Virus record (IMG/VR): IMGVR_UViG_3300031867_000014
Span: 64,001-115,928 of that record
Reading direction: 5' to 3' (one strand)
DNA length: 51,928 nucleotides
From: a virus
Lineage: Duplodnaviria; Heunggongvirae; Uroviricota; Caudoviricetes
The translations under genes were made by a program, and so were the position numbers. The notes beneath the pieces were generated by a model, which saw only the letters and a list, made by a program, of their open reading frames with translations, had not been told where the DNA came from and searched no databases. Of the stretch, positions 211-51,733 are shown piece after piece (the first letter of the stretch is position 1; each line of letters begins with the position of its first letter).

Positions 211-1779
211 TTAAAATTCTACCCAAGTTAATTGATTAACTACAGTAGTCATGCTTGTCTGTAATGAAGAAATATCCCCTTCGGCATCGCCTAAACGAGT
301 GCCTAAACCATCAATGCGACCGCCAAGAGCAGTATCGGCTGCAGCGCGTGCATCAGCTTCTTGCTTTACTGCATATGCAATAGAACCTTCTGTTGAGTCA
401 GATCCTTGAATAATATCTAACTTGCCTTCGGCTGTTGTCATACGAGTTTGCAATGCGCTAATATCACTATTTGCTGCACTAATATCAGCATTTACAGAAG
501 TTAATGCTGATGCAATTTTTTGATCAACAGAACCAGTAACATCCGCATTACCATCAAGACGAGTAATAGCTGCTTCTAAAGTATCAATATCGCTTTCAGC
601 TGTAGTTACACGACCAGTTAACGCGGTTGCTGCGCTTTCAATAGTAGTCGCGCGCGCTTTTAATGCTTCAATAGCGGCAGTATTATCACTGATATTGGCC
701 TGCATAGTAAGAGCATCATCACTATTTTCACCAATCCAGTCTGCAATTTCTTTTAATGTGTCAAATGCTTCTGGTGCTTCAGCAACAACAGTGGCAATAC
801 GATCATTAACTGTTTTAATAACAGAACCTTCACCATTACCATTTAAAGTTGAAATTGCATTTTCATTAGCGGCAACACGTGCTTCTAAACCAGTAGAACC
901 ACTACCAACTACACGCTGTAAAGCCGCAATATCAGTAGCATTTTGACTAATATCTGCTTCGTCATTTCCAAGTCGGTCTTGTAATGCCGTAATATCACTA
1001 GCATTTGCGGCATCACCGGCGCTACGTAAAGCAGCTTCATCAGCGACCGCTTTTGCCACAGAACCATCAGTATTAGCATCACCATTTAAAGTATTAATAG
1101 CACTAGTATGACTACTTACAGTGGTTGTTAAAGTGCCAACAGCGCTAGATAAATCACTAATGTCCTGTTCATTGGTTGCAACACGAGTTTTAAGCCCTAA
1201 AAGATCTTCAATTGCATCTTCTAATGCGCCGAGAGTTGTATAAGTAGATGCATCGCCCAATAAAGCATCACGTGCATCATTAACAGCTTTAGTAATAGAC
1301 CCAACACCATTGCCATTAATAGTCGCCAATGAATTTGTATGCGCAGCAACGGTAGCTGCCAAATCAGACAGATCCTGAGAAGTAGCAACAGTTTGTTTAG
1401 TAACAACTAAAGTTAATTCACCATTCGCTGCAACAGAAGTTGTAATAGCAGAAACAACATTTGCACCAACTTCATTATTAGGATCGTCACTTACACGAAC
1501 AATGCCAGCTTTATTAATTTGGACCCAGCGAGTATTTGTAGCGTCCCAACGGGCCAAAATATTATTTTCTTTTACATAATAAACTGCGGTTTCATAAGCA
1601 TGGCCGGCAACAGGCAAATCATTGATAGTATTAACTGGAATAAAATCACCCAAACGGACACGTTTATTACCAGTATCAACATACATTGCGCCTTCATCAG
1701 TGGTAATATAAATAGTACCATCAGTACGTTCGACAGGAAGCTATGCTAATAGACCACGTTTAAAATTTACACTTGCCAT
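211..1779 (-). CDS. Coiled-coil tail fibre-like protein, 522 aa with TAG=Gln
   Basis: The ORF extends through one TAG (1741-1743) to ATG 1779 with a GGAGG RBS (MASVNFKRGLLA[Q]LPVERTDGTIYITTD). Repeated LNG...GSV.K units, heptad character and an APEAFDTLKEIADWI motif. Confidence 0.75.
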
Positions 1780-1800
1780 AAAATTCGCCTCCTATTATCG

Positions 1801-2856
1801 TTATTCAGCAATTGCTGACCATTCAAGATTATGATGTTCGAGCATATAAGTTACATACTCTTCAACACTTGTATATGTATTATTCTCTGGATCAGTATAA
1901 ATGGTCTGGCCACCAGACGTATTTACATTTACCCAATTACCAAGAGCATTCATGAACAAATTAGCTTTTGCCGCATTATCTAAATTACCGGTAGCAACTG
2001 GCACTAAACCAGCAACTGAACCATTAAATAATGGGATAATATCCGCGGCATGATTTATTAAATCATCATAGATACCAGTTGCTGGGACAGGTACTAAAAC
2101 TGGTTCTCCAGTTTCAGGATCGGTGTCTTCTCTGGTTGTAGCAGCATGACCAATCAATGCTTCTAAATCACCAACAGCATCATTTAGATCTTGCGTGGTA
2201 ACATAATTACTAAGATCAAATTCGCCGCCCAAACGTACCCATGCAGTACCATTCCAAGCATATTCATCAGTACCAACTTGATATACATCACCATTAGCTG
2301 GTGAAGAAATTGCCTCTAACGCCTCAAGATCGGCCACTACGCCTTTAAAATGGAAAGCACCATTTAAAGCATTAATAGTGGTTTCTAAATCAGAAACACG
2401 ATTAACAATACCGGGAATTGCAGGAATATCATTTTCCACATCTGCGGGAGTACCGTATAATAAAGACTCTAAATCACCGACACTGTCCTCTACTGTATCA
2501 AGACGAGTATCAAGCGCTGCAATAGTAGAACTTTCAGCGCGACTGTTTAACTGTATCCATGCATTATTTGAATAAATAAAAGTATCTACAGTATTATCAA
2601 GATTAGTAATAATTACTAAATCATTAGCTACTGCAGTATTTTCACCTAATAAACGAGCGATACATATATTATCAGTCTCTTCCGCCAAGCGAGTTCCACT
2701 ATATACATGAGCCTGTCCAAATGGCACAGAACCACGATATAATTCACCAGTATCTGTTAAGAAATAAAGCGCATTCTCTAATTTAGAAGCTAAAGAATCA
2801 TATTGTGCGCGAGTACCAAATTTAAAAATTACTTTTGCATTTGTATTTGCTGGCAT
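1801..2856 (-). CDS. Tail fibre/appendage-associated protein, 351 aa
   Basis: Intact ORF with no TAG. N-terminal FKFGT...ALYFLTD motif and FKG.V...GDVYQV...EYAWNG..W..LGG module typical of phage fibre proteins. Confidence 0.65.
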   Translation of the reverse strand: MPANTNAKVIFKFGTRAQYDSLASKLENALYFLTDTGELYRGSVPFGQAHVYSGTRLAEETDNICIARLLGENTAVANDLVIITNLDNTVDTFIYSNNAWIQLNSRAESSTIAALDTRLDTVEDSVGDLESLLYGTPADVENDIPAIPGIVNRVSDLETTINALNGAFHFKGVVADLEALEAISSPANGDVYQVGTDEYAWNGTAWVRLGGEFDLSNYVTTQDLNDAVGDLEALIGHAATTREDTDPETGEPVLVPVPATGIYDDLINHAADIIPLFNGSVAGLVPVATGNLDNAAKANLFMNALGNWVNVNTSGGQTIYTDPENNTYTSVEEYVTYMLEHHNLEWSAIAE

Positions 2857-2895
2857 TATAATTCACTTCACTTTCTAACAGTTATCCTGTCTTTT

Positions 2896-2936
2896 AATAT
2901 CAAAAATCAACTTAGCCTATTAATAGAATTAGCCCA
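2896..2936 (-). promoter_or_regulatory. Candidate phage late-promoter motif, copy 1
   Basis: TGGG-N10-TAATAG-N9-ATTTTT-N-AT-N-TT, with the same spacing as the copy at 20650-20690. Both lie at or just after a hairpin and before a gene. Confidence 0.45.
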
Positions 2937-2955
2937 GATAAAATATCTGGGCTAA
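2929..2955 (-). terminator. Intergenic hairpin (terminator-like)
   Basis: TTAGCCCAGATA-AAA-TATCTGGGCTAA perfect 12-bp inverted repeat just after the TAA at 2960. The T-tract is weak. Confidence 0.55.
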
Positions 2956-2959
2956 AACA

Positions 2960-5152
2960 TTATTCTCCATCAGGTTCTTCAATAGTAATCTATAAAGTAT
3001 TACTCCAAGTCTCTGCATTATCATCACCATGCGTGCGTATTGCTTGAGCTCGATATGCTCCAGATTCAGTTACTTGATAAGAACCACTTATATTTTCTGC
3101 AATCAATGTATTATCTTTATACAAATTAATAACCACTTCATTGGTTGCGGTTCCAGGGCCACTAACTGTGATTAAAATCACATCAGTAGTTTCAGCTCTT
3201 AAAGAAAGTTCCACAGTCGGAATATTTAAAGTAATGGAATAATTTTCTTTAAGATCAGCAACCGCTGCAGCAATAGCAGCAGCAATATCAGTAGATAACA
3301 TATAATTATTTAAAGTAGTTTGCTGTACATAATTACTTAAGCCAAGCGTTTCTGCTAAACGATTAGTTGGTGTATAATCTGCAAATTTTGCATCAACTGC
3401 AGCAATTGCATTACGGGCGGCTTCAGTTGCTGAATTAGTGGCCCAATTAGTATTTAATCCACTAATTGCATTATCAGTATATGTATTAGCATTATCTTCA
3501 CAATCATCTGCATATGCCTTTGCCGTAGTTTCACAACCATCAGCATAAGTCTTACATGTGGTTTCACAAGTATCTGTATAATTATTAGCACTTGTTAAAG
3601 CGGCATCAATAGCACTAGCAACATCTGTAGCATTATTGGCTAATGTGCCAATCGCCGCATTGGTATATGCATTAGCATTAGATTCAGCCGTATTTGCTTT
3701 TGAAGTTGCATCCGCTGCAGCCGCAGATTGAACTGCCTCATCTGCCGCGGAGCGTGCACTTGCTTCTTGAGCAACAGCATAAGCAAATGAACCAGGAGTA
3801 GTTGCATTATTATTAATTAAATCAATTGCATCTTGAAGCGCACTATCTGCATTACTGCGCACTTGTGCTTCTGCACTAACAGCTGTTTCAATCGCGCTAT
3901 TACGATCAGTAATTTCCTTAGTAATGGCTGTACCACGATCAGTAACTTCTTTTGCAATTTGCTTTTCTAATTTACTTAATGCTGTATTTAAACTATCAGA
4001 TGCATTAATAGCACTAGCTGAAGAATTATTTTCATAACCAGTTAAAGCTAATGCACCAATATAATTAAATGTACGAGTTAATGCTCCGGTGCTCGCAGTT
4101 AATGATAAATCAGTTAATACATTACCAGTATTATTTGCAGTAGTCGAAATACTTGGTAAAGGAATTTTTACTGTGTGTGTACTGGAACTCACAATATGGC
4201 CAGCGGTATCATACTTTAAATTTGGTACTGTAAATGTAGCACCAAAATTAGGCGTTTTATTGGTAGTAGTATCTTCCACATCAGCTTCATGCATTTGCCA
4301 GTGGCCGAATGTAATTACTTTATTAGTAGTATCAACAGAAGAACGTAACCATTTATTACCAATTTTAAAACTAATTTTATCAACTAAGGAACTAGCTGTT
4401 ACATCAGTAGCCGTACTATTGTTAGTCACTGTAGATGTATCAGTAACTGGAGCAGCTAAGGTAATTGTTTTATAATTATCTGGCAAAGTAATAGTTTCCG
4501 TATTTTTACTACGAATATGCCCAGCCTCATCATACGTAAATGTATCAATGGCAAAAGTGCCTGTATCACTATTATAATCAATCGCGCTTGTAGTCGTATT
4601 AATCGTTTGTACCAAGTGCGCAAATTCAATTTTATCACTCGCTGCGGTGCTTTTTAATTTTAACCATTTATTCGCTGGGGCTAATGTAACAGTACCTGCA
4701 TTATTATTTGCAACGGTGTCACCATTACCCGTCACAGTTAAATCAGTGACTGCAGTACTTGTTGTGGTTACTTTAATTGTTTTAAACGCGCGCAATGCAG
4801 TAATACGATCATCAACTGTATCAGTTTTATTGTTTAAAACACCAGCAATGGCGGCTAATGACGCTAAAGAATAACCCTCTAAAGTAGTAGGATTAGTTCC
4901 ATAAATATCACGGAAAACCTAATCGATAAATTCAAATTTATCAGTTACTCGTTCATTTTCATCTTGACCAAGCTATATATCTTTAGCATGGACTAAAGGG
5001 AAAGTCTGGCCATTCTTTTGTGTAATACCAGAAATTAATAGCATAGTGCCTTCATAAGTACGGGGCTTTGCGCCATCAATTCCTTGCAATTTAGTATAGT
5101 CATAAGAATTACTATATAAATCTTTATTTTTAAAATTTTCTAACGTAGCCAT
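2960..5152 (-). CDS. Tail fibre-like structural protein, 730 aa with TAG=Gln
   Basis: ATG 5152 with GGGAGGGG RBS. In-frame TAGs at 4973, 4919 and 2990; ends TAA 2960. Duplicated NKWL...YD.AGHI module and A..YTD/YAD coiled-coil repeats. Confidence 0.7.
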
Positions 5153-5166
5153 TTATTTCCCCTCCC

Positions 5167-7641
5167 TTACGATACCGTTACTGTTGTTGTACCGAGATTG
5201 GGCTTAGTACTACGCCAGACAGTATAAGTATTAGTACCATTAGCATTATTAAATGTATTTTTAAAACTAATATTACCTAAATTATCAAAACCGCCTTCGA
5301 GTCCTCCAACCTTAAATACAGGAGTAATAGAACTTGGACAAATATAATACATATATTCTCCAGCTCCAGGAGACATACTAGTTGGTGATACTTTACCAGT
5401 TGCTAATTTATCGCCACGATTTTTAGTTAACACATTAACTAATTTAGTATAAGTATTAAAATCGGCTGCTTCATGAGCCGTACTAACACCCCAATAAGTG
5501 CGCCAAGCATATGTTAAAGTTTTAGAACTACTTACAGACTTATTGCGCTCATCAATTACTGTTAACGTCCATTTTGGCGCGGTATCATTAGATGAAGTAG
5601 TTACCTTATCAGTGACAGTATTTGTAGCTGATGCTAAATAATCTGCACGATTAGTTACATAATAATTAGGATTAATATTAGTATTATTGATTAAAGTAGC
5701 TGTACCAGGAGCCGTGCGTTTTAAAGTTAAAGATTTACGCGGACCTTTATTTAAGGTATACTTCAAAGTGGCCAAAAATTCTGTGGCTCCATATTCAACT
5801 AATGTACCTGCCGCAGAAGTTTCTGCTCCATTAGTTGTACTCGCCACTGGTACTGTTACTGTAAATGTAGGGATCGTCTATTCCTCATATTGCAAATCTG
5901 CCATTTCTTCTTGCATTTTATTAATCGCTTGTCCTAATGTATCAGTTGCTACCACGCCGTGTAAACAACTATTACCATAATAATTGTTTTGAGTTACGAA
6001 ATCTAAATTTAAACCTGTCAATTCATAACTTTGTGGTAAACGCCAAGTGCCACCACCATCTAATAAATAATCATCACCATTAGTAGAATTAACAGTCGTA
6101 TATGGAAATGCTGTATCAGTAGTAGCAATCACGCCTTGATTTGTAGTAGCCATTAATTTATTTTTAGCAAGAGAAGTAGAAATATTCCGTAACACGTCAT
6201 CAATACGACCGATCATACCTGCCACTGTATTAGTATCTCTTGGATTAGTTACTCCAGTTCCTAGAGCACGATGTAAAGCTACTAACATACCATAAAGACC
6301 TTCTTCTGGTGTTTCAAGCTTTACGCGTTTATAAGTATAACTACTAATTGTATAACGTTCTGCAGCAGGAATAATAGTAGTATCAGTGTTGGCTACACGA
6401 TACGTAGAACCGTCTTTATAATAAATACCAGTATTACTCTAAGTAAAGACTGGCGTTTTTGCATAATAATATACCGCAGTTACTTTACCATTTGTACCAA
6501 CAAAATATAACTTATTATCAGCCGCAGGTTGAGTGGGTGCTGGTGCCGCACTTACATAATCAAATGAGTAACCCAGAATATCACGAGTACGATTAATTGC
6601 GCCAACTAAAGTAGTATAATTATATTCTTTGGAATCACTTAATTTAGTTTTAATCCAGTCCTTTGTCACACGTGCTCCACCAGTAAAACCATAAATTTTA
6701 TCATATAAATCATGTACGGCATTACCAATAGCAGGGAAATTAATAGACCAAAGTCTAATATCATCAGCAACTGCAAAATTACCTGACAATGTAGTATTAT
6801 AATGACGACCAGTATGATCAGTGGTATAAGTAATTTCATTATTTTCATCAAGCGTGGTTTGGTGAACAGTAGGATCAAAACCAAGTTTATTAAAATTAAT
6901 AGCGACCGGTTGCGCCTCTGCATCTAAAGTATAAGTATGAGTCTTTTCAGTACCATCAGCATTATATGTGTACTTCTCTGTATACTGTTTAATAGATACA
7001 TCGCCATTTTCATCTGCGGCAAATTTATCTTGCCAATGACCTGGCATATGAATATAATAATTCAAATTAGTACTATCACTTGTGTCAATAGAAGGAGAAG
7101 TAGAAAATTCACTTGGAGCATCTACTACTGTTGAAAAAGTTGGTACCGCTGCATTTAATTCAGCTAACATAACATACTAATACTTATTAGACGTAGTATT
7201 AAATGTCTTACGCCAAACGGTACCATCATATCCACGGCCATATGTAGTTACATCTAAATTATAGTTAACACTATATGGTGTTTCGTCTGCTGTCAAACGA
7301 GTAAAGCCATTAGTAGAAGTATATCTATAGAAATCAATTAGATATATATTGCTTTCACCACGTTCAGTACGATTAGCAAGACTATTTTCATCTCGATATA
7401 ATGCATTATTAATACGCTGAACTTGTTTTTCAGGATCTAATTCAGGAGTGGCATAAAAACGACCGCCAGAATACCAGCCACTAATAGGTACGTCATCATA
7501 TTCTACTAATACAAAACGACCTAAAAATACATTATCAGTACCCGCGGTTAATGCTTCATCCATTGCTCGACGAGAAGTATAAACACGGTCAAACGTGAAA
7601 GCAGATTTATTAGAGCCAGATATATTGCCATAAAAACCCAT
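5167..7641 (-). CDS. Phage structural (tail/baseplate) protein, 824 aa with TAG=Gln
   Basis: Four ORF fragments (7177, 6439, 5878, 5167) in one frame, separated only by TAG. Starts MGFYGNI and ends TAA. Confidence 0.75.
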
Positions 7642-7643
7642 GT

Positions 7644-7961
7644 TTAACCCTCCTCATCATAAATATAATCAATAATTAAACTCGTTTTATAAGTTCCAAT
7701 CTGTTGCAAAGAATTTTTTGCAACCATCAATGAGGTAATTGTCGCCAATCCATCAATATTTAATTCATAAATACCAGTTGCGCCAATTACCAATGGAGTT
7801 TCACTATTATTGATCAAAATACGCGTGCCAGGCAAAGCCTAAACGCCGAGCTAAACAATCGGATATTTAAAAGCATCGCCAGTAGCCAAACTATTAAGAG
7901 AATGTGTATTGGCCGGCATATTTTCACCAAAATAACGAACCTAAGACACCTTTTTCGCCAT
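7644..7961 (-). CDS. Small phage tail-module protein, 105 aa
   Basis: ATG 7961 after AAGGAGG. MAKKVS[Q]VRYFG...PIV[Q]LGV[Q]ALPGTRILIN...IGATGIYEL, with three TAGs read through. Confidence 0.75.
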
Positions 7962-7975
7962 TGCTCTTTTCCTCC

Positions 7976-10297
7976 TTACAATATACGCTGTTCAGCACGA
8001 GTGGCTTTAACAGACATTAATCCATCATGCGCTAATGAGTATGATAATGAATCAATTAGATAATCCCCATCAATACCAGTCGTTTCATCATACACTTTAA
8101 TGCGTGTATTTGGCTCTAAATAATACACTGGCATCGCACTTAGATTAATTGTATCATTATAATATGTGCCTTCATAAATGAGCTAATCTAAAACCTCTTT
8201 TGCAGATTTACCCTAAGAACTCATAGAAAAGTAATTAGCATAAACTGTAGGGATAGTCATTCGTGCATATTTTAAATCATTAGAATACTTCACAATATCT
8301 TCTTCAGGATTAATGAATAAAACATCGGGAGTATCTCTAACAAATATGGATTTTACAGTAGTATCATTAACTACCTTTGGTCGATGACCAATTTTTGATA
8401 TTGCATAATTACGAATACCTGCGGCATTTGGGTCTAAGAAATCAAACCAAAAAATTAAACCATCTGGATTATAAATCTCAACTTCATGCGTAACATATGA
8501 ATAACGGAAATAGTCTGGATTCCAATAGCCATTAGCTTGCCATAAAGCCCATTCTTTTTCTGAAAAAGTAGTTTTAGAATCTTCAAGAGCAATTCCATTA
8601 TCCATTTTAAGATTGCCCGAAGAATCATATTGATACTTTACATATGGCTAACGCTCAACACGGTATAACTATTCCCAAAAACCCAATAAATCGGTGTAAT
8701 AACGTGCATATCCATTTAACAATAATTTATTATAAATTAAAGTAATTTCAGTTTGATATTGTACTGCCTTTTCGCGCGCTTCAGCAGGCCAAACATAACT
8801 TGGATTATTTAGATCGGCGCTTATATCAGTAATAATACCACGTGCATCGAAACAATCTTTTGCCATTCGGAAAATTAATTGCCGCCAATCATATTGACCA
8901 TTTAATTCCGTAGAAAACCATTTAATAGGCTAATTAGTATACTTCTATGAATCAGGACGTGAATGCTCTTCACACCATTTATTATACCAAGGTTTATGAT
9001 TTTTGCACCAACGCCAAAATTCTGAAAAATAAGCAGTAGGTTTTATATCAATAGCACAACGTAAATGAATAGGCAATTCTTTGGAAACACCTTTCATAGC
9101 GCCCCAAATAGAATAATCATTTTTAATGGCAGATAAATTGGGTGAATTATTATATGATTCAATCAATTGTCCGCCTTCAAACACATAAGTATCCATTGAA
9201 GTATAAGCTGTACTATCATAATAAATTTCAGAACCATTATAACCATTATCTTCTGTAGAAACCTTTGCGTTTGACCATGAAGTATTATAATAAATTTTTT
9301 TACGTTGAAAGACAAAATGTCCATCAAGATCATAAAAATATTCAAAATCACCTAACATTGTTACAATTTTATCTAACATAGAAGTAATGGTTTCGCCTAC
9401 AGCTACAATTAAATCACCAGCATAGGTTAAATCAGTGGCTTTAAAACCAATAGTTTGTCCATAATCAGCACGTTTCAAAATTGTATATTGAATTTGTGTT
9501 TCGGGGTCAATAATTGTCAAACCGTCTCCACGATATACTCCATCCGAAGAATAAATGCTAATACCGGTTGTACTTACGCCTTCTTTAAATTTTGCGCCTA
9601 CATCACTATTTTCAAAACACATTTGAGTAATTGTCTAATCACCCATGTGAATATTATAAACATAAATAGGATTATTGCGTGCGCGATAAGCAATTAATTC
9701 TACACCACAAGTATCTAAATCGTTAATTATAATATTGCCATAAGGCTCCAACCCATATTCATGCACTGCTTCACGGATAATGGTTTTAATTGGAATGTCA
9801 GTTTTTTGATAACGATTGGTATTGGCAATCTATTCCCATAGACTACCAAAATCGTTCTCAGCAGTTACTGTACCGCTAATATCTCCATTGAGCATACTCA
9901 TTTTATCTTTCCCTTGTAATGAAATAGAATAGCCCTATTCATTCAAAGTCACGCTATATGAAGTTAATAAAAAAATACCCATTTTAAAATAAATAATATC
10001 ATCATAGTCATCATTAATCATATTTTTTAATCCAATATATAATTGAAATTTTGTGCGTAAAGCCCAATCAACATCAGACTATGAATATTTTTTATTGGTT
10101 GTTAAAGAGATATTACAAGTACGTCTCACTGATGATTTACCATCGATATTCACACTACCACTTGTGACAGAGCCAGTAATTTCAGCTACTGGCTCTTCAC
10201 TCATGGTTAATGAAATAATTTTTACATATACTTCACGTAAATGCATATGATCTAAAGCTTTAAGAAATTCTTTATCTAACATTACATCATGCATCAT
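7976..10297 (-). CDS. Putative tail-tip/baseplate hub-like protein, 773 aa with TAG=Gln
   Basis: Fragments 10079, 8945, 8669 and 8213 share a frame; TAA at 7976. Motifs GSVNIDGKSSVRRTC and YFYDLDGHFVFQ. Lies downstream of the tape measure gene. Confidence 0.7.
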
Positions 10298-13182: not shown

Positions 13183-13184
13183 TA

Positions 13185-36201: not shown

Positions 36202-36232
36202 AAATACACTCTCCTTTTACTCATCTATAAAT

Positions 36233-36261: not shown

Positions 36262-36262
36262 A

Positions 36263-37432: not shown

Positions 37433-37448
37433 GAACATCACCTCAAAT

Positions 37449-39929: not shown

Positions 39930-39944
39930 CGCCTTTTACTCCTT

Positions 39945-41169: not shown

Positions 41170-41794
41170 TATCTACTGGCTCCCAATAATAACTACTATC
41201 TTCAGCTGCTCCTTCAACTGGTTGCCAAGTACCCCCGTCGCCTACTTCCTTAACAGGAGTAACAACAACAATACTTGGAATTTCAACCTATTCCATGGCC
41301 GCTTCGACTAATTTATCTTTACGGTCATCTGTAAGAGCACTTTGATTTAACACACTCCAATTGGACATAATACGTCCGTCGTGCCCCTAAAAACGGCGCT
41401 TATAGAGGCGTTGAGCATGTATATTCTCTCGATGATTCTCAGCTTTTAAAGTTAATAACTTCGCAAGATGATTAGCTTGCGAAGTAAATTTAAAATCTGA
41501 ACCGGAATATTTCATCCGAGTATTTTCTACAGAATTAATTTGACGATCCAACCACGCCTATTTCATGCATAAAGCAAAAATATTAATCTCTTCAGGAGTT
41601 AAATCTACATTATATATACCTTTTTCTTCATCATAGTCATACAATGCAAAACGTGGAAATTCAAAATAAGGAATGGCATCAAGTAAGAACTATTTAGCAT
41701 CTCGAATAGTATCTTCCTCAGTAAGTTCTAAATACATATCATCAGTAATCTTACCTAAGAAGCGATTAATAATAGTTCCAAATGATGTTGCCAT
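41156..41794 (-). CDS. Putative head-tail adaptor/connector, 212 aa (absent from the ORF track)
   Basis: ATG 41794 after AAGGAG. MATSFGTIINRFLGKITDD...DLTPEEINIFA...DFKFTSQANHL, with four TAGs; TAA 41156. Confidence 0.7.
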
Positions 41795-41807: not shown

Positions 41808-42413
41808 TTAGTCTTCTTTTTTACTTACGACATTATATTTAGGAGTTGTTCTGCGGCCAGTAGTTTCTTCAGCTGCTGTTGGCTGTACACGACGTGTAGG
41901 AGCAGCCTTGACTTCCATTCCACTGTCTGTCTGTCCAGCAGCTTCTGCTGCTTCTGCCGCAAGTTCTTCCTTATGCTTGAGCGCAAGATCTACCTTAAAT
42001 CCGGTCTTTTCTTGGATTGCCTTAATCTTACGAGTATCGGTAATAGGCAAATCTACAGCATATTTCTTAACTAATTCAATAACGCCACCTGGTGCAAAAT
42101 CAAGACAATCGAGTAATGCATCTACGGAACCATTCTTTAGAAGATCAATAACTCCCTTGTCATCTAAATAATATTCCGGTTCTACTTTCATTGGCATCTC
42201 TTTCACCGTTGGCGCATCCTGAATGAACAAACTATTACGAATAATATAGGCACCGCCAGCTTTCTGGCTTAAAGCCATAAGCTCTTCAACAGGAATCAAT
42301 TTAGTTTCACCTGGAGCAAACTCGCGGCGCACATGCATATCGTCCACATGATAGATAACAACACGATTGCTTCTATTGCGAACCTGTACCTTCTTATTTG
42401 TATCCATATTCAA
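41808..42413 (-). CDS. Hypothetical protein following the major capsid gene, ~200 aa
   Basis: Intact TAG-free ORF with AAAGGAG RBS (start TTG 42413 or ATG 42407). Confidence 0.75.
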   Translation of the reverse strand: MNMDTNKKVQVRNRSNRVVIYHVDDMHVRREFAPGETKLIPVEELMALSQKAGGAYIIRNSLFIQDAPTVKEMPMKVEPEYYLDDKGVIDLLKNGSVDALLDCLDFAPGGVIELVKKYAVDLPITDTRKIKAIQEKTGFKVDLALKHKEELAAEAAEAAGQTDSGMEVKAAPTRRVQPTAAEETTGRRTTPKYNVVSKKED

Positions 42414-42474: not shown

Positions 42475-43539
42475 TTATGGGTTTGGAGTGACTGGAGTCT
42501 TATCACCCTGATATACGTCATACTGACCAGCAAGTTCTGTATCAACATAAACGCAAATGTCAGGAGTCATCACAACGCCAACGCCAACCTTCTTATAAAC
42601 CTGAATTTCACGGCTACGGTCCTTGTTAACATACTCGTCAACAATAGTAGAACCTTCCATAACAACCTTAACAGGCTTTACAGCACCTGGGAGGATATAG
42701 CAATAACCTGGGTCAATAACCTTGGTTGTATGAGTTGCATCAGTAAATCCCTGTGGAAGGATATTGAGCACATGGCCCTTGTAGTTAGCAAAACGGCCAT
42801 TGTTCCAAATGGTATCCTTCATATTGTCAGACCAAGCATCCCACTTCTCTGGGAGGATCTTCGCGGCAAACTCTTCAGTGCAATAAATGGTAGGAGTACC
42901 ATAAGCAGCAGAAATAGCGAGCAAACGATCGAAAGCTTGAGAATCGAAACCATCAACTTCAACAGTGTTCAAAGCTGGAAGCTGAGTAAGACCTTCCTTA
43001 AGAGCAGCACCGATTTCCCAATAAATGAGCTCATCAATACCGTCCATAACGATCTTGGTTACTTCTGCGAAGTCAGCACGACCATCAAGGAACTCTTCAA
43101 GACCAATCTGAGCGGCACCGCCGATAGCACTAGTCTGAACTTCGATTGGGGTATCCTTACCAAGCTTAAATACTTCGTAAATACCAGCCAAACCAACCTT
43201 GGTGATGAACTGCTTTGCACGCTGACGATCATGTTTACGCCAGAAGATAGTTGAATTACCCTGAGCAATAGTCTTCACTTCAGCAAACTTGCCATATTCT
43301 TCTTCAACCTTCTTAGGAAGAATATCGTCCATTGTCTCTTCAATCAAAGAGAAGATGGTGTTCTTATTTTCGCGATAAAGTGCGAAAGTACCCGCGAGTT
43401 CATTCATTTCCTTACGAAGAGTCTCATTAAGAGCATCGTAGGTAAGATTCTCGCCATTAAATGAGTAAGCAACAGGAGCAGAGCGATCAGCCTTTGCAGT
43501 TGCCTTCATCAATTTAAGAAGTTCATTTCTTTCCAACAT
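42475..43539 (-). CDS. Major capsid protein, 354 aa
   Basis: Size, position after the protease/scaffold and decoration genes, strong codon bias, G.Y.G motif (NGRFANYKGH), following hairpin. No TAG. Confidence 0.8.
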   Translation of the reverse strand: MLERNELLKLMKATAKADRSAPVAYSFNGENLTYDALNETLRKEMNELAGTFALYRENKNTIFSLIEETMDDILPKKVEEEYGKFAEVKTIAQGNSTIFWRKHDRQRAKQFITKVGLAGIYEVFKLGKDTPIEVQTSAIGGAAQIGLEEFLDGRADFAEVTKIVMDGIDELIYWEIGAALKEGLTQLPALNTVEVDGFDSQAFDRLLAISAAYGTPTIYCTEEFAAKILPEKWDAWSDNMKDTIWNNGRFANYKGHVLNILPQGFTDATHTTKVIDPGYCYILPGAVKPVKVVMEGSTIVDEYVNKDRSREIQVYKKVGVGVVMTPDICVYVDTELAGQYDVYQGDKTPVTPNP

Positions 43540-43560: not shown

Positions 43561-44361
43561 TTACTTAATTCTCATGACCTTAACGGCCTTCTGCATATCA
43601 CCAAGATTATAAATCTTGACAACCTGCCACTGGAGACTACCGTCGCCAGATGCAGATAAATAACCATGAGCATTTGGTGAAAGAACTGCACCAAGTGCAA
43701 CTGTTTCATCAGCAATAGTATTGGTAGTGAAAATATCACCCTCATGAGTCTTGAATACACGAGGAACCATCAAACCGGCCTTGCCCTGACCACCAATGCG
43801 ATCTGGCTGTGCATATTCTGCCATCTGAGGAATGTTCAACTTTTCAACTTCATAGCTATTGCCAATTGGATAATGATTACGACCATAGTCTGGAGCTTCG
43901 CCAGCTGCATTGTTATGAGCATCTGGATAAATTTCAACCTGACCCTGGATCTTCTTCATCATATCCCAATCTTCAGAAGATTCAAAACCATTAATACGAA
44001 CACCGTTGATGCCCTGAGCAGAACCCCAAGCAGCGGCAGAAGCGCCAACACCAACTGGGCTATAAACACGACCATTATAATCACGACGAATCATCGCGAA
44101 ATCCTGATCGGTCTCATGATCTCTATAAACCTTAACTTCATTAAATACGAGCATCCACTCGCCAGCGCCAGTGAAGTTGCAAGCGCCATTCAAATAGTCA
44201 TACTTGACGAACTGACCATTCTCAAGGATGTCAATATCTGCTGCAACAGGGAGCTGAGCATAAATTTCGCCAGTTCTCTGTGCACTGAGATGGTTAGGCT
44301 CGACCTGACCGAAGCCAAGAGTTACAAACTTAGCTTCTGGAGACAATCTTGTAAAAGCCAT
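43561..44361 (-). CDS. Putative capsid decoration/stabilising protein, 266 aa
   Basis: Lies between scaffold and MCP. Motifs GQVEPNHLSAQRTGEIYAQLP, LENG and GDIFTTN. No TAG. Confidence 0.65.
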   Translation of the reverse strand: MAFTRLSPEAKFVTLGFGQVEPNHLSAQRTGEIYAQLPVAADIDILENGQFVKYDYLNGACNFTGAGEWMLVFNEVKVYRDHETDQDFAMIRRDYNGRVYSPVGVGASAAAWGSAQGINGVRINGFESSEDWDMMKKIQGQVEIYPDAHNNAAGEAPDYGRNHYPIGNSYEVEKLNIPQMAEYAQPDRIGGQGKAGLMVPRVFKTHEGDIFTTNTIADETVALGAVLSPNAHGYLSASGDGSLQWQVVKIYNLGDMQKAVKVMRIK

Positions 44362-44385: not shown

Positions 44386-45729
44386 TTAGTTCATTTCTTT
44401 GGCGGTCTCACGCACAGCCTTAATCCAGGCAGGCGCGCTGTCACCATCATTGCCATCCAACTCATAAACAAGTGGATTCTCTGGAGTCTTTTCTGACTCC
44501 TTCTTATCGTTATCAAGGTTAAAACTTACCTTGTTACGAACACAAATCACAGAAAGCTTAGCTTCGATATCATCGAGAGAATAAGTGTCGATGTTATCTA
44601 CACAGTCCTTCTTTTCAGCATCTGAAAGCATATAGAAACTATTAATCATTTCCTGCTTAGCTTTACGGTCGGTCTCAACCTTAAACGCACGGAGAGGCTC
44701 AACCTCAGCCTTCAATGCTTCGAAATCCTTTTGAAGCTGGGCAAACTGTACTGCCAAAGTCTTGTAAAGATCAGAATCTGCGACTTCTTCATCAGTTAAA
44801 GAATGCTTCGCAGCACCCTTCTTCTTCTTTTCGTCCTCATCTTCTTCACCCTTCTCTTCTTTATCAGAATCGGCAGGTGTACTTTCATCATCTTTGCCCT
44901 CTTCATCCTTCTTTGGTGGGAAAGGATTTTCCTTCTTTTCCTCTTCCTTCTTTTCCTCTTCCTCATCCTTCTTCTTGAATTCGGTTTCAGGATCAGTTGG
45001 GTTATTTTCCAAAGTAGGATCGATTACCTTATTTTCATCCATTGAAGTAAATCCTCCTTTGCTCAAAGCGTTCTTTATATCTTCCATTAAAGAAAATAAT
45101 TGGTTCTTGAAGTCTCCGTCAAAGGAGAATTGTGCTGCAATACCCGCGCCCTCAAAACAAGGCTCGACGTCTTCTCCAAGAATACAAAGCTTTTGTATCA
45201 TTGCTTCGTTAATTATGAAAAATTTAGGAGCACCATTATCATCGAATGTCCAATGGCCATCTAATTTTTCTTCATCAAGTTCCATGGATTGATTATTGCC
45301 ATGTTCTAAAATGCGCTTTGCTTCTTCATAGACGCTAGTCCACAAAAAACCTTCAGTCATTAAATACTCATGTTCTATGCCTTCATCATTAAATTTCTAG
45401 AACCAAATCTTCGCGCTTGAGTCAACAAAGCCATAAGCTTTAGTTTTATCAATAATTTTAAATTTACCATTGCCAACTTCAATACTGCGATTATGACCAG
45501 AAAAGTCTTGTGTCTCAGGATCAAAGTAGCCAACGATAGGACAACCATGTAAAGTTTTTGCCATTTTAGTGGCAGTTTCTTTTGTAATTACACTACCATT
45601 ACGATTTGGCTGCTCACCAACATAACAAACTTTTACTTCACAATGCTATAAAAGAGGATTATCCGCAATGGGAGTTACGTTAAGTAACTCGACTGTATTT
45701 TCAATAGGAATACTAATATGCTTAGGCAC
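44386..45729 (-). CDS. Prohead protease-scaffold protein, 447 aa with TAG=Gln
   Basis: GTG 45729 after AAAGGAG. N-terminal NRNGS, QSMEL and LCILGEDVEPCFEGA motifs; highly charged C-terminal scaffold region. TAGs at 45646 and 45397. Confidence 0.75.
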
Positions 45730-45734: not shown

Positions 45735-47378
45735 TCACTCCTTTCCAGCAGATTCTCTATTAGCTATAGTTTTATCAGATTTCTATTCATTACTTTTTTC
45801 TGGTCTGCCCATTTGTTTTTCTTCTCCTATTGCCTTGCCCTATTGACCGGCAGCTTTATTTGCTGCTGCTTGAGCATTACCTTGTTGTCCAGGTAAAATA
45901 TCTTTACCATTTAAAGTAGAACTCATAAGAGGCGGGATCATAATTTCTTGAAGTTTTAGTACTTCATTCTCAAAATGAGCAGTTGCAATAATAGAACTCT
46001 ATGAATGTCCAAGTGCAATTTGAGGTAACATCTTGGAAAAACCAAGTTGTGTATGCTCTTTATACATCTTAGACAATTCTTTATAATTATTAATTGTGGT
46101 TTCTAACATGTTAAAATGTAAACACCACTTTTTATTCGCCGCAAACTTTCTACGTAATACACGACTAAAAAGTTCATTAAATTCAAATACTAAATCACGC
46201 ACACTTGCTTCGTCTACTGCAGAAGCTTTTTCCAGAGCCAAATTGCTATTAGAATTAAATAAATTCTAAGAAACACCTGCTTCATTATAAACAGTACGTT
46301 CTACTTTTTCTAACTCGTCTCGCGTAGTAGTAGTATTCTTATCAGCAAGATCGGCAACATCTACATCAGCAAATGTTGTCATAACATCAACGCCAACTGC
46401 ACGCTTTAACATCTAAACAGTATTATTATGAATATCTTTAGCTTCATCAACGTCGAAAATTAAATCGCCATTTTTATCTAAAGGTAATTTCTAAATAATA
46501 ACTTTTAAAAGTTGTTGCAACATTTTTCGTTGATCTAAATCCTGAGCTTCATCCAAATCGAGGATTTTCGTAGTAATATTTACTAATAAAGGATAATCTC
46601 GCCCATTTAGATTAACCTTAAAGGCACACTCTGGATCTAGTAGCCACCAAGGCCCATTCTTATTTTCTGGATCAGTCCACTAATCAGAAGGAGTCTTATT
46701 TAAACGGCCCTATTTATACGCAACGTATGCTTTTGCAAATTCCTCTGGATACATTTTAAGGACTCGAAGTCTCATTTCAATGTCCGGGAACATGTCATCA
46801 AAAAATTTAGGATTAAATTCTACCGCTGGCGTATTACCCACCTTAAAACGACTACGGCAATATTGAATTGGTAATTCCTAAAATGTAAAGCCGTTTTTAG
46901 TGTCAATAATATAACCATAGTAGCATCCATTAACGATAACTTTTAAAGCAATATCATTACATAATTTTTTAATGCCACTTTCATCCATGTAATCTAAAGC
47001 ATCAGCAAATGCACTCAATACTTCTTCATCTTTCGTTTTATCCTTTAAAATATATGGAGTGATATACCAATCATATCTATATAAACCAGCAAAATATTTA
47101 CATAGCCGTTCATATAGGCCACTTACTTCAAAGAAATAATTAGAAATATTCCGTAACATGTTTACATCTTTACGGGCCATTGCTCGTAAAATAGAAACTT
47201 TACTATAAGTACGTTGATCTGCTTTCTTTAAAGATCCTAAATCCACAACGGCATCTTCAAGAGTCTAAAAGCCGACCTTAATTTTGCCGTAATCTACTTG
47301 TGAACCATAGATGTCTCTTAGTTCTGGACGTTGAACGATTGAAAAGCCCTTGGCATGTATTGCATTTTGATCGGCCAA
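45735..47378 (-). CDS. Portal protein, 547 aa with TAG=Gln
   Basis: TTG 47378 after AAGGAGG; fragments 46878 and 45999 in frame; TGA 45735. Size, position after TerL and C-terminal GRP motif fit a portal. Confidence 0.75.
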
Positions 47379-47390: not shown

Positions 47391-47747
47391 TTAATATCCA
47401 GCTTTTTCCATAATATAATCATAACTAATTAAATTCTCTTCAGTATATGGAATTTCAATTAGATTATAATTATTTAGCGCACAAAATCTACGCTTATTTT
47501 TATCGTTAAACTATTGACGATAAAAACCCTACTTTCCACCATATTTAGAAGAAGGCTCATAATGCTATTTTCCCTAATATTCAATTAAGAAATCTACATT
47601 GCCATCATCATCAAAAACACAGAAATCAAATTTTAATGGGCGACCATTAGGACTATTTAATCCTTCAAATTCTTGTTCCATGGTGAAATTTAATCCAGCT
47701 TCGCGCAAGATTTCTTCGATTTTAATTTCTCCTCTTGATGCACGCAT
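47391..47747 (-). CDS. Small PD-(D/E)XK (Vsr/DUF559-like) endonuclease, 118 aa with TAG=Gln
   Basis: SRGE..I...L...F..E..F...LKFDF...LIEY[Q]GK[Q]HY...D..K..FC...LIEIPY. Confidence 0.8.
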
Positions 47748-47757
47748 ATTTGACACC

Positions 47758-49488
47758 TCAATTCATGAATAACATATCACTAAATCTCTTTTTGCGCTTT
47801 TTACGTTTTTTATCTTCTTCAAGTTTAATATAGTATAAACCGTACTCAAAGGCGGAGAATTTATCTTTTTTAATGCCTTTATTCGCTTGTTTCAAAATGA
47901 TATTTACGCCTTCATTCTCTTCACGTAAATTCATCATCTCTTCTTTTAATATGGAAGTTAAAGTGAATGGTTTAAGATATTCTGCCCGTTCCTCAGGCTT
48001 CATATCTTGTCCGCGCTTTGTTCCCATTAACTTAACTTTCGCAACACGCTCATCAATCAACATCTTAACATGTCCAGAAGCCATCTAACTTTGCGCATTA
48101 GCATGAGCTTCAGTGTTAATGGGCGCATTAGCTTTAATAATCCAAAGCGCATTTTCTTCACAGATCTAAGTGCGATACTTTTTATACTCGCCATCATCAT
48201 CATTATCTACACCAAAATCTGGAATTACATCTCCAGTATCAGGATCAGTCTGACCTTTTACCATATAATCTACTAACCCAATACCTAAACCATTACCATC
48301 AATCACAAGCTTTTTAGCCTTATACTTATAGTATAATTTTTTTAATTTAATTGCCTAATCTTCAAAATGAGTATCAGACATTGTATAAATATTTACTAAA
48401 CTAATTAATGCTAAACCACTAGTTTGAGGAGTTACTTTAAATACACAAACTACTGTATCACAGCCTTTACGACCAACGTCGCAAGCCAATACATAATAAG
48501 CATTTTTAGTGCTACGACCGGAAAATTCATATTCAGGTTGTTTTAAAATACGATTATGATCAAATTGTTCGGCGTTAAAAAACGCATCTTCAATAGTGCC
48601 CGACCAAACACTTTCATATTCACGATCAAAAGATGATTCATTAAACGTTCCGTCCATCTTAAGATCTCGAATAAATGTTTTATCTAATAAACCCATTAAC
48701 ACAGGAATTCGCCAAGTACCGCCCATAATCATAGCACGGTCTGGTTTAATAATTTCCCATACTAATAATTGAATTAACTTATCATAAGCAAATGTATTTT
48801 TCCAACCAGCAGTTGTTACATAAATTTGACTTTTATTTAAAACTTCAGCATCGTCTTTATCGCCCCAAGCGCCTCGACGAGATACGTTCATTGTAGGAAT
48901 AATAACTTCATTAAGAATCGTTCCATCAATACCGACGCACTCTTCCATGAGTCCACCATGACGGCGTTGTCCTCTCGAAGTTTCACGAGCTGCTATATTG
49001 TCCAGCACTGACCCGTTCTTAAATACATATCTAACATAATCTTTACCTTCCATCGTTTTACCTCTCCGCCAATCTATCTCTTGATAGAGTGCGGGAATAA
49101 GGTGACATAATTCTTGCACTTTAGCTTTTAAAATACTTGAAGCCTGTTCCTTACCACCAGAAGTTACAAATAACTTTGCCCCAGGATACAGAATGCAACG
49201 CAAAATTAATATCAACGCCGCAAGGAAAGATTTTGAGTAAGCACGTGGGAATACTGCATACGTATATTTATAACGCATGGCCGCACGCAAGAAAACTCTC
49301 TAATAATAAAATAAATGAAAATTTTCTGGATTATTTTTCTCGGTTAAAAAATCAACAAATAAATCTGGATACTCTCGCCAAAATGCAATATATTTTCGCG
49401 CAATCGGAATACAAGCAGTAACACGTTCTTCAGATAAACCAATTTTATCTACATTGCTCTTGAGATTGAGTAAATCTTGTAAGGCCAT
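47758..49488 (-). CDS. terL: Terminase large subunit, 576 aa with TAG=Gln
   Basis: Three in-frame fragments. Adenine-binding YY[Q]R, Walker A-like PRAYSKS, Walker B GLMEE, motif III VTTA, RNase H-like LACDVGR and KDKFSA. Confidence 0.88.
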
Positions 49489-50660
49489 TACTCATCATCC
49501 TCTCCAAGCAATTCCCGCATTGTCTGTTCATCATCTTTTTGCTCTTGTTCAATAAATTCATAATGAGCTAAGAAATCGCCATCACTAAGAACTTCTTGTT
49601 CTACATTTTCCAAACTGAGATCATCCATATCTGTAGTGTCAGCGTCTTCTTCTTTTTCTTCTTCACGCTGCATAGTGCGAGCCGCATTCTCAATTAAGTT
49701 ACCAAGATTCAATTCTTCAGTAACTAAACGATGTGTGTAGCCACGCAAATCAGCTAAGGTTTCATCGGGTTTATCTTGAGGTTTATCAACATAATATCGC
49801 GGGATAAATCCTTCACGTTCGCATAGAAGAATAAATTCATCAATCGCGGAAACATACTCTCCGCTTTCTGCTTTATTCTAAGCTGCGGTAAATTTTGCGG
49901 ATTTCATAAGCGTGTCATATACTTTCGACATCTTTTGAAAACCTTCAATATCACCAAGGTCTACTAATTGATGACATTTTAAAGAAGTTTTACAAATTAA
50001 CTTCAAATAGTCCTCATGCGCTGGTGTAACAATATCGAAAGCCGCCATCATTTCCTAATACAGCTTTTCGAGTTGTACCCACTCATAAGGACGATAGGCT
50101 TTACCCCACTTAATAGTAAGGTATTTCTTATCTTCTTCTGTTAAATCATCACTAAAGTATTCAGGCTCATTTAAATCGATTGGAGCCCCAACATTACTTT
50201 GAGCCTAAAATTCGGCAGGCTTTTCAGGCATTGTGCCTGTAGTAATCGCTGCATCAATTTCTTCACCGCTATAACCCTATCGCGCCATAACTTCTGCTTT
50301 CTTAGCATCAGCCTCTTCGCGCAAACGCTCGGTGTCAGCCCAAGTATAATTGCTGAATTGCTTCATACGCATCTTAGACAAATAGCGTCCAAGAATAGTC
50401 ATACCAGTAACCTTTTTAGGATCCTTAGCATAACGTTCCAGAAGAGTTGTCCACTCTTCTTCTATATACGGCACATCAATTTCTTCTAAGATCCATGTAT
50501 ATGATTTTGGATCCCAGTTATCGACATGACGTGTTAAACATTTTTTACATTCCGGCAAGAATCCATCAGGATACTTGTCTGTCCGCTTGGTTTGATAGAA
50601 CTAATTTTCATCCATAGTTCTATTGCAAGTTTTACAATATAATGTCTTGCCTTCAGCCAT
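49488..50660 (-). CDS. Zn-finger protein, putative terminase small subunit, 390 aa with TAG=Gln
   Basis: ATG 50660. N-terminal CKTC...CKKC; directly upstream of and overlapping the terL start (TAATG); acidic C-terminus. Confidence 0.6.
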
Positions 50661-50662
50661 AC

Positions 50663-51733
50663 TTAGCTCTCCTTCTTTTTACTATTACGACATTGTTTAC
50701 AAATGGAATAGAAACCATCTTTGCTTGTCTTATTAATAGAAAAGAAGCGAGAATGAGCTAACTTAACTTCACCACAGCGCGAACATTTCTTCCACTTGCC
50801 TTTTTCAACAAATGTAAAATACCATAATAGCCATTCATCTTGAGCCTTTTGCGCAATTAATTTAGGAATCTTATTACGCCAAAGACTACTAATGTATTCA
50901 ATTGAGTGAGTAAACTGAAACTCTTGTTGTAGTAATGCCTAAATTTCTACATTTTGAAGTTTATCCATTTTATATTCAATAATACGCTTATACATTGGAT
51001 AATCTTCAAGCGCACGATTTACTAAGGGCATAAAATCCATGCATAAAGCCCAGGCATCACTATCAAATTTCCCTTCGGACCTTGCTTTTAATGCAGGATA
51101 AACTTGTAAAATTTCACTAATAACTTTATAATCTAAAAATGAGATACCTTCCCAACGAATAAGTGGATTATGTTTTTCATCATATTCAACCCATTCGCGC
51201 CATGGTAAAGGAATTGATGTCTTAAGCCCTCGTGTAATTTTACTAAAGATTATTGGTTGTCTGTAAGCATTCTTAATAATATATTGGTCTTTCCGCATTT
51301 CAATGAGTGTTCGTTTGACAATAAACGCTTCACGTCCGGTAACAGTTTTCTATAATTTTTCCCATCTTTCAATACTTTCCCGCAACTGTTTAAGAAACGG
51401 GATCTCTTCAATATCTTTTTTCGTAATTGTTACTTTCGGTTGAAATATTGTATTCTTTCCATTCTCACTAATTAAATTATAAATTCCATCTTCGCCATTC
51501 TCTAACTGTTCAACCAGACCCTCATAAGATGTTTCCCGCTTATTAATCGTTGCCATACGATTAGGCGTTAACAACTTATGCTCCTTTTTCTCTTGCTTCT
51601 CCATACAAAGAACAAGATAGTCGCCGAGGATTTCGAGATACTACTCGCTTGGGTCGGGAGTTTCTGCTAAAATCTAATTTACTAACTTTAAGCGTTCTTG
51701 TGGAGAATCGATTGTATAATCTAACTTAATTAT
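50663..51733 (-). CDS. Phage protein with HTH-like segment and C-terminal Zn finger, ~356 aa; probable ATA/ATT start
   Basis: Fragments 51350 and 50939 in frame across TAG. C-terminal CSRC...CKQC. The frame stays open upstream to a GGAGGAG RBS with no ATG/GTG/TTG. Confidence 0.7.

Follow-up and report, generated by a model that had tools for sequence, protein, structure and literature searches.

Gene content of the virion arm

The window, the whole 51,928-nucleotide stretch of viral DNA analysed here, belongs to a contig (G000) that is 66% complete, and all of its genes described below lie on the minus strand. At its head stands a predicted sigma-70-type promoter (51787..51815, minus strand), which matches at 12/12 positions ahead of the arm's first gene. 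A site of at least 11/12 is found at the same place in 36/41 relatives, recoded and standard alike; over the whole scan, promoter matches were about as frequent as by chance (38 sites, 35 expected), and only this conserved site is reported. The first gene (50663..51604) encodes a 313-aa protein of PHROG 5767, labelled 'sigma factor' (E 9e-49), with 2 in-frame TAG codons; a profile of this gene returned no match in Pfam or PDB. Downstream are a likely small terminase (49488..50660, 390 aa, 5 TAG), assigned by position (its match is phrog_3314, a family with no assigned function), and the large terminase TerL (47758..49488, 576 aa, 4 TAG), YonF-like by its terminase homologues. A nuclease-like protein recognized by its PHROG profile (47391..47756, 121 aa, 4 TAG) and the portal protein (45735..47378, 547 aa, 10 TAG; phrog_2739, E 2e-80) follow, and the next gene (44386..45729, 447 aa, 2 TAG; phrog_3313, likewise with no assigned function) probably encodes a scaffold or protease, judging by position.

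Three genes without TAG come next: an open reading frame for a head-module protein of 266 aa with 14 CAG codons (43561..44361), the major capsid protein of 354 aa (42475..43539) and an open reading frame of 201 aa (41808..42413). The capsid protein is YonB-like with an HK97 fold (Atlas YonB 0.99); its predicted model (pLDDT 76) gave Foldseek matches to capsids and encapsulins, and its sequence had no match in PDB. The head-tail region (38644..41794) holds five genes delimited by open reading frames, PHROG and alignments, namely 41156-41794 (4 TAG), 39945-40874 (4), 39399-39929 (4), 38644-39402 (5) and the conserved 3' part of frame 40861-41340. A virion structural protein of 375 aa without TAG (37499..38626; phrog_2729), by position likely the major tail protein, and two genes at 36263-37441 (9 TAG) and 35674-36201 (1 TAG), together spanning 35674..37441, precede the tape measure gene (20729..35599), which encodes 4956 aa with 61 TAG and matches PF10145 (E 6e-29) and PHROG tape measure families.

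Beyond the tape measure gene lies a large gene, to which its position points as a tail-tip gene, split by a group I intron. Exon 1 (15115..20622, within an open frame of 15082-20622 that holds 15 TAG) and exon 2 (13596..14792, 2 TAG) flank a 322-nt intron without an open reading frame (14793..15114; RF00028, 95 bits against a cut-off of 50), which explains the gap between the two frames at 14796-15081. Removal of the intron keeps the frame, giving a product of about 2234 aa as computed from the coordinates. In the RNA run X17, one contig skips exactly these 322 bases and another holds the intron; the joined form may also derive from an intronless strain. The match to the RF00028 core and the in-frame joint in one RNA-run contig place the element among group I introns. 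A 5' splice site chosen by eye at 15139 was rejected, because the RNA contig puts the joint 24 bases away. The arm closes with four tail/baseplate region genes (7644..13571), at 13185-13571 (0 TAG), 10294-13182 (6), 7976-10297 (10; phrog_1887 tail protein) and 7644-7961 (3), and four fibre-like genes (211..7641), at 5167-7641 (3 TAG), 2960-5152 (3), 1801-2856 (0) and 211-1779 (1), among which only the last has coiled-coil and fibre matches, both weak.

The tape measure gene, the terminase matches and the capsid homologues in Bacillota metagenome-assembled genomes agree with the first-pass description of a long-tailed phage of Bacillota, the host being a prediction from these homologues, which lie in five contigs and reflect binning, not infection. 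Relatives have genomes of 165-195 kb. Head module genes and their order are shared with SPbeta-like and other Bacillota siphophages (YonB capsid, YonF terminase; Enterococcus EF1/H1, Geobacillus E3, Lactococcus 949), whose terminases, unlike that of the present phage, carry single-gene annotations in the standard code. With phAss-1 of the proposed Phassvirus (PMC10607447; OQ749652) the phage shares TAG read as glutamine in virion genes, no synthetase, a long tape measure gene (4956 aa here versus about 3150 aa), a predicted Clostridia host, homologous terminase, portal and tail genes and, through its relatives, many tRNAs with CUA suppressors. Membership of that group, which comprises phages of more than 80% nucleotide identity on one branch with phAss-1, was nonetheless rejected: the two TerL proteins are 44% identical in amino acids, and in a quick TerL tree of 49 sequences (37/85 loci removed as short or duplicate, including L011, L034, L041 and L068) phAss-1 lies on a separate branch, farther away than the standard-code Enterococcus phage H1 and Geobacillus virus E3. 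Crassvirales, which have a crAss-type terminase and a short tail, were also rejected, since the terminase matches those of YonF-like Bacillota phages and a tape measure gene is present. The crAss-like code-15 phages (PMC7886860) have the same codon change concentrated in late genes and group I introns in virion genes, but belong to a different order with hosts of a different phylum, and the recoding has peptide proof there (PMC9523058), whereas here it is read from the sequence.

TAG acts as a third glutamine codon

In the window, open reading frames of at least 100 aa cover 0.605 of the minus strand under code 11 and 0.972 once TAG is read through. Control read-throughs of TGA (0.613) and TAA (0.681) left the cover far lower, and both were dropped as candidate recodings; coding density thus rises sharply for TAG only, as in code 15. 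Reading through TAG extends the longest open reading frame from 601 to 4956 aa. In-frame TAG occurs in 21/27 genes (a count that omits frame 40861-41340), with codon totals of 158 TAG, 507 CAA and 98 CAG, and TAG acts as a third glutamine codon in these 21. All 27 genes end in TAA (23) or TGA (4), as first annotated, and none in the contig clearly ends in TAG. The first-pass annotation had counted 20 TAG breaks in the tape measure gene; there are 61, leaving 62 fragments under code 11, and neither frameshifts nor other stops interrupt the 4956-codon frame. It had also described frequent overlap with the next start, which we observed at only 3/26 junctions, though 18/26 lie within 25 bases. The three motifs it quoted are present, at TerL codon 63, nuclease codons 61 and 64, and codons 37 and 41 of gene 7644-7961.

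The residues in homologues point to glutamine. Across 2090 cells from 80 loci opposite TAGs of the window (tallies limited to 37.5-51.6 kb), we found Gln in 1114, TAG in 315, Lys in 163 and Glu in 122, a profile that resembles the one opposite CAA. In columns conserved in standard-code lineages, TAG falls on Gln in 19/25 against a background of 92/2179 (4%), and CAA codons submitted to the same test gave 23/36, in agreement with the proposed reassignment to glutamine. At TerL codons 63, 378 and 468 most relatives have Gln or TAG, and codon 61 of the nuclease-like gene is CAA in 66/76 and TAG in 10/76 aligned loci. TAG positions interchange freely with CAA and CAG across the relatives, 55/80 of which show TAG recoding and 25/80 of which use no TAG with the same genes present. 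The aligned relatives have no in-frame TAA and at most one in-frame TGA, and none of the 80 is a TGA-recoded member. Stretches with TAG recur without a single letter changed in contigs from public runs, of which run X1 is possibly the source sample and RNA run X6 comes from another study.

That TAG encodes another residue, or marks genuine stops in a genome that is decayed or wrongly sequenced, is hardly credible. Such a reading can appeal to the 6/25 conserved columns that are not Gln, where six residues occur once each; the CAA control misses Gln equally often, the 4956-codon frame is intact, the TAGs recur in other assemblies and 55/80 relatives repeat the pattern. As far as sequence allows, we regard this alternative as refuted. 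The recoding is code 15, which earlier publications describe in gut phages and which is found here in an SPbeta-like siphophage of the cattle gut.

The recoding had been described as window-wide. This stands for 21/27 genes and does not for the remaining six, the major capsid gene among them, so the recoding is not uniform. Among recoded loci TAG is present in the major capsid gene in 1/32, in the 266-aa head gene in 0/33, in the 375-aa virion gene in 0/26, in the 201-aa gene in 4/29 and in TerL in 54/55. The major capsid gene and two other TAG-free virion genes are likely high-copy, and the absence of TAG from the former suggests that read-through is costly. TAG is absent from the DNA replication genes but present in late genes whose CAA bias is similar, giving the code-15 pattern of recoding concentrated in structural and lysis genes with standard replication genes; the exceptions to this concentration are the capsid genes that lack TAG and, in the other arm, a few genes that have it. 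The code-15 gut phages of Borges et al., especially the large Agate and Sapphire clades (10.1101/2021.08.26.457843), share TAG on Gln, this division between structural/lysis and replication genes, code variation among close relatives, cattle gut and, through the relatives, suppressor tRNAs and genome size, as far as the parts of that account used here describe them. The same parts report RF2 in a few TAG-recoded members, and give neither a suppressor tRNA structure nor TAG-free high-copy capsid genes.

Suppressor tRNAs of the relatives

No tRNA was detected in the contig itself by ARAGORN, RF00005 or model R1; 82 relaxed ARAGORN calls, without a CUA among them, were discarded as low-threshold noise. 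Searches of metagenome contigs found no exact match extending the contig start, and searches of viral contigs found no relative of the 442-aa gene. Synteny with relatives puts the tRNA cluster beyond position 1 of the contig, and in two further contigs the cluster lies upstream, by 5 and 8 kb, of the counterpart to a gene located close to the G000 start. CUA tRNAs are present in 4/4 tRNA-bearing closest relatives and in 9/34 related records searched; in the 402-kb record G025, the tRNA may belong to another phage. Among records at least 90% complete, a two-arm tRNA(CUA) occurs in 7/8 recoded and 0/7 standard-code records, the latter representing about four lineages. Across 20 records we found no GlnRS or GluRS; a release factor is present in 3/20, and the one inspected has an SPF motif, which we take to mark RF2. 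The relatives support the first-pass proposal of a suppressor encoded outside the window, although its 'must supply' is slightly too strong, since the recoded record G028 (100% complete) yielded no two-arm match, and the 49 kb of it that were searched held no tRNA with a CUA anticodon.

The relatives' tRNA(CUA) combines a Gln-type acceptor end with a second hairpin, whose loop carries a Gln anticodon (CUG or UUG) and occupies, as measured from the T arm, the place of the anticodon in an ordinary tRNA. In 32/42 distinct long-arm CUA tRNAs, YUG stands at the anticodon register (shuffles: mean 4.4, maximum 13). The second arm's 3-pair stem shows 100% pairing, each of its pairs has undergone two-sided changes, and the loop keeps Y32-U33-Y34-U35-G36 while stems vary; a rival stem register is only 77% paired, single-sequence folding favours another register in 4/5 cases, and the second loop of G009 is degenerate. 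In UCA tRNAs, suppressors of UGA, the same register reads CCA (Trp) in 26/36 and YUG in 1/36. The patterns behind these sets hold the first anticodon stem fixed, the rows share ancestry, and the motif was the ground for choosing alignment A2; a loose two-gap pattern gave mostly chance matches, whose loci entered the 91-gene parse and added little. A short variable loop is found in 49/91 distinct CUA tRNA-like genes and in the one annotated phAss-1 suppressor inspected, so the second arm is unneeded for amber suppression in general. Ordinary tRNA-Gln genes are kept by these phages as well.

By eye, the relatives' CUA arm presumably resembles the anticodon arm of tRNA-Trp, whose amber suppressor in E. 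coli we take to be su+7. The E. coli tRNA-Trp suppressor, as treated in the sections of PMC9976931 drawn on here, also inserts Gln, being charged with it, and G36 and U35 are recognition sites of GlnRS; this suppressor arose by a single-base change and has no additional arm, unlike the phage tRNA with its Gln-type acceptor end and second anticodon-like hairpin. Our searches found no publication describing the two-arm design. The novelty is this two-arm tRNA of the relatives, not the recoding itself.

Proposed decoding mechanism and its alternatives

We consider it fairly likely that the window represents the arm of virion genes in a large, long-tailed phage, that its TAG codons, aligned with Gln, are read by a tRNA(CUA) predicted in the third of the genome missing from the sequence, and that host enzymes load this tRNA with Gln through the second hairpin. 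A two-arm tRNA(CUA) cluster, as seen in relatives, would lie just beyond the contig start. Its CUA arm would decode UAG against competing host release factor 1, and its second arm, with the CUG/UUG loop, would together with the Gln-type acceptor end serve host GlnRS or the GluRS/GatCAB route. Replication genes, we propose, are free of TAG because they are translated before the tRNA accumulates, and the major capsid and other likely high-copy genes because read-through is imperfect; elsewhere TAG would drift in and out. Terminase, portal and tail would then not be makeable until the tRNA is present. The more general design, in which one arm reads the stop and the other displays the normal anticodon of the host synthetase's amino acid (CUG/UUG for Gln, CCA for Trp), we judge evenly balanced from the comparison of these tRNA genes.

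A doubtful alternative accepts glutamine and the phage tRNA while denying the second hairpin a role in charging, making it a relic of arm duplication, a segment cut out in maturation, a decoder of CAG/CAA or a decoy for an anticodon nuclease. Short-arm suppressors exist, the stem has only 3 firm pairs, the preference of single-sequence folding for another register fits, and a synthetase could presumably reach the second loop only with a non-standard fold. Set against this are the constancy of the five loop positions while the stems change, the poorer pairing of the rival register, a loop that tracks the amino acid across two different stop codons, and the ordinary tRNA-Gln genes present besides. 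It is quite improbable that the host supplies the read-through, by itself reading TAG as Gln or by its own suppressor, with phage tRNA unneeded. The empty searches of this contig and of G028 are in keeping with such a host, as is the lack of a gene here clearly ending in TAG; the contig, however, is without the whole region where relatives hold their tRNAs, a recoded host would let TAG reach the replication genes, and CUA tRNAs follow recoding among the relatives.

Selection may instead have kept the TAGs as a timer, with late genes delayed up to the code switch, a model stated by Borges et al. (10.1101/2021.08.26.457843) in the portion of their account used here; possibly one gate suffices, in the form of a TAG-bearing first gene, perhaps a late transcription factor, behind a host-type promoter. 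We regard this as unlikely, if tenable. It accords with the TAG-free replication genes beside late genes of similar CAA bias, with the conserved promoter heading the arm, and with a first gene that bears TAG in 39/42 recoded loci and the label of a sigma factor. Yet 25/80 relatives have the same genes and promoter without TAG, TAG positions swap freely with CAA/CAG, L020, a recoded relative, lacks TAG in its first gene, the gate would not reach the major capsid gene, and Pfam and PDB lend the sigma label no support. The TAG-free major capsid gene, through the cost of read-through that it suggests, bears on whether recoding is a timer or a drift that is tolerated.

For annotation, code 11 leaves the tape measure gene in 62 pieces and breaks the terminase and portal genes. 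Code 15 is hereby extended to a large cattle-gut clade whose recoded members are interleaved with standard ones, which makes it well suited to studying how a code switch arises. The findings also touch the question of how recoded phages load a stop-reading tRNA without a synthetase. If the two-arm reading is true, decoding and identity would be divided between two arms of one tRNA, which would explain how recoded phages cope without a synthetase of their own and would offer a route to suppressors for synthetases that read the anticodon.

In-frame TAG and the genes without it

The record is linear (115,928 bases) and 66% complete by CheckV, and its final 51.9 kb, the window, carries almost all of its coding on the minus strand. 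Re-calling genes in code 15 rather than code 11 raised minus-strand cover by ORFs of at least 100 aa from 0.605 to 0.972, as recoding predicts; control read-throughs gave 0.613 for TGA and 0.681 for TAA. In-frame TAG was present in 21 of the 27 genes counted (158 TAG vs 507 CAA and 98 CAG), a count that leaves out a 28th frame, 40861-41340, for which homologues exist. As the first-pass annotation had proposed, the genes terminate in TAA (23) or TGA (4). Its "often overlapping" junctions proved to be tightly packed (spacing of 25 bases or less at 18/26) but overlapped in only 3/26, and the tape measure gene, credited with 20 TAGs, contained 61. TAG-bearing stretches were repeated without any difference in contigs of public runs X1, possibly the source sample, and X6, an RNA run from a different study; bovine gut is the label on most runs holding matching contigs.

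Recoding was not uniform across the window: no TAG occurs in the capsid gene, the adjoining 43561-44361 or the gene that is likely to encode the major tail protein, and all three prefer CAG. Among recoded relatives' loci, TAG occurred in 1/32 for capsid, 0/33 for 43561-44361 and 0/26 for the likely major tail gene, in contrast to 54/55 for terminase and 48/49 for portal. The plus-strand arm of the contig (replication and nucleotide genes) is open in code 11, bar a few genes, the exceptions including 45662-46198 and 17529-18860, the latter in the TAG-bearing stretch 16958-18860 (contig coordinates); TAG ends 3 of its 41 code-11 ORFs, all three extending further in code 15. We infer that TAG is avoided in genes expressed early or at high copy.

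The base before in-frame TAG was seldom G or C in window genes (9/158 vs 149/605 for CAA/CAG), and CTAG, but not GTAG, is depleted genome-wide. In the very long tape measure protein (20729-35599, minus strand; 4956 aa), Trp-containing repeats of ~25 residues form an internal block around residues 2250-2600, and a run of Gly/Asn lies close to the C-terminus.

Relatives and the residue at TAG

Portal, nuclease and tape measure protein were named by PHROG and Pfam matches, and 42475-43539 was identified as the major capsid protein gene (Atlas YonB; predicted model and HK97-fold matches). Capsid homologues were found in five MAG contigs labelled Lachnospiraceae (two), Clostridia, Bacilli and Erysipelotrichaceae, labels that hint at the host. 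The YonF-like terminase is 50% identical to those of Enterococcus phages H1 and VRE9_4 and Geobacillus virus E3; phAss-1 is less similar (44%) and branches outside H1 and E3 in a quick 49-sequence terminase tree. There, the window falls within a subclade of recoded members only, whose sister group mixes recoded and standard-code members.

Window proteins with TAG masked were aligned to 80 loci collected by terminase search. Within window 37.5-51.6 kb, the span of these tallies, whose cells are not independent, those facing window TAG held Gln in 1114, TAG in 315, Lys in 163 and Glu in 122 of 2090, and those facing CAA held Gln in 52% and TAG in 7.6% of 3620. A stricter test used conserved columns of the 25 TAG-free loci, sorted into four lineages: TAG stood on Gln in 19/25, as the first-pass annotation had anticipated, against a background of 92/2179 over all conserved columns, with 20 further TAG columns variable (CAA on Gln 23/36; CAG 17/19). 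Interruptions by other stops, which would argue against recoding, did not approach TAG rates: across the 80 loci, TAG was in frame in 55, TAA in none, and TGA never above once per locus. TAG is thus almost certainly read as Gln, as firmly as sequence allows. Late-gene TAG=Gln is described for gut phages in 10.1101/2021.08.26.457843, PMC10607447 and PMC7886860, with peptide proof in PMC9523058.

The head of the arm and a group I intron

A perfect sigma-70-type promoter match leads the arm (51787-51815, minus strand) and is conserved in 36/41 relatives of both codes. Its position ahead of TAG-bearing genes would fit a translational gate, although standard-code relatives manage without one. The first gene (50663-51604, minus strand), labelled sigma factor by PHROG, has C-terminal zinc-finger-like cysteines and carries TAG in 39/42 recoded loci. 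A strong match also lies back-to-back at 51838-51866 (plus strand), at the window end, and a plus-strand gene begins in the final bases of the contig.

An ORF-less group I intron of 322 bases (14793-15114, minus strand) lies inside a large tail gene. In RNA run X17, one contig skips these bases in frame and another retains them; the joined contig probably represents spliced RNA, or else an intronless strain. Joining fuses two apparent genes into one of ~2234 aa, and without splicing the upstream frame terminates at 15082.

A two-arm suppressor tRNA in the clade

The first-pass annotation expected a suppressor tRNA(CUA) or related factors outside the window. In the phage's own contig (66% complete), neither tRNA (ARAGORN, RF00005 and model searches), release factor nor Glu/Gln synthetase was found, but relatives carry such a tRNA: among the five closest long ones, four possess tRNA clusters, each including tRNA(CUA). 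By synteny the cluster lies just beyond the contig start in relatives, and is predicted there for this phage; 2/47 further sources had the same tRNA upstream (5 kb in one, 8 kb in the other) of a gene located 2.6 kb into the contig. At the contig start itself (L555:30-3326), TAGs occur in plus-strand genes, some tail-like and one resembling a cell-wall hydrolase, that are separate from the main virion arm and adjoin the expected cluster site.

The relatives' tRNA(CUA) is ~90 nt long, with an extra hairpin bearing a Gln anticodon loop between the anticodon and T arms (L111:4496-4588 and L120:2267-2355, minus strand; L121:10186-10280, L130:3515-3606 and L132:17355-17447, plus strand; all labelled tRNA-Pyl by ARAGORN). 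Among records at least 90% complete, 7/8 recoded and 0/7 standard ones carried it, ARAGORN covering fetched cluster regions only for the latter. The recoded exception, the complete record G028, has a 134-nt tRNA match with an anticodon-region insertion (L554:177-310), and no CUA tRNA was found in the 49 kb fetched from it. G025 may be chimeric, its tRNA perhaps another phage's. G001 (L111-L120) carries 71 tRNA genes, almost every isotype twice, at both record ends, and two different two-arm suppressors. The standard-code relative G026 has a TTA-anticodon tRNA (L540:13974-14046).

A long extra region occurred in 42 of 91 distinct CUA tRNA-like genes of the fetched loci, and 32 of these 42 had CUG or UUG at the ordinary anticodon register counted from the T stem (2000 shuffles: mean 4.4, maximum 13); both Gln anticodons were present (25 and 6 in the 91-gene parse). 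Across 23 distinct rows, the hairpin's 3-pair stem was paired without exception, and each of its pairs showed two-sided changes. A rival register favoured by single-sequence folding was 77% paired. Among UCA tRNAs (L418-L537), a set known here from tRNA genes alone rather than from the code of their genomes, 36/50 distinct genes were long, with CCA at the register in 26/36 (shuffles: mean 2.1, maximum 7) and YUG in 1/36; most others resemble tRNA-Sec by eye. With CUG/UUG on CUA tRNAs and CCA on UCA tRNAs, the second loop appears to track the amino acid.

The bases recognised are U35 and G36 for GlnRS and a modified U34 for GluRS of B. subtilis (PMC9976931), which offers a rationale for a Gln-type second arm. 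Against a charging role, short-arm suppressors are common and the search patterns fixed the first stem. We give even chances to a two-arm tRNA that would split decoding (CUA arm) from identity (Gln-type arm). Release factor genes occurred in 3/20 related records (L558 in G011, L557 in G012, L556 in G025), the G011 protein carrying an SPF motif, presumably RF2-type. GluRS or GlnRS was found in 0/20, so the suppressor would be charged by host enzymes.

The mainly open-access literature searched, with passages of PMC10879173, PMC12386605 and PMC5389517 among it, yielded no account of a suppressor with two anticodons. The recoding seen in the window is thus of an already known kind; the novel part, the two-arm tRNA, belongs to the clade and would extend to this phage.
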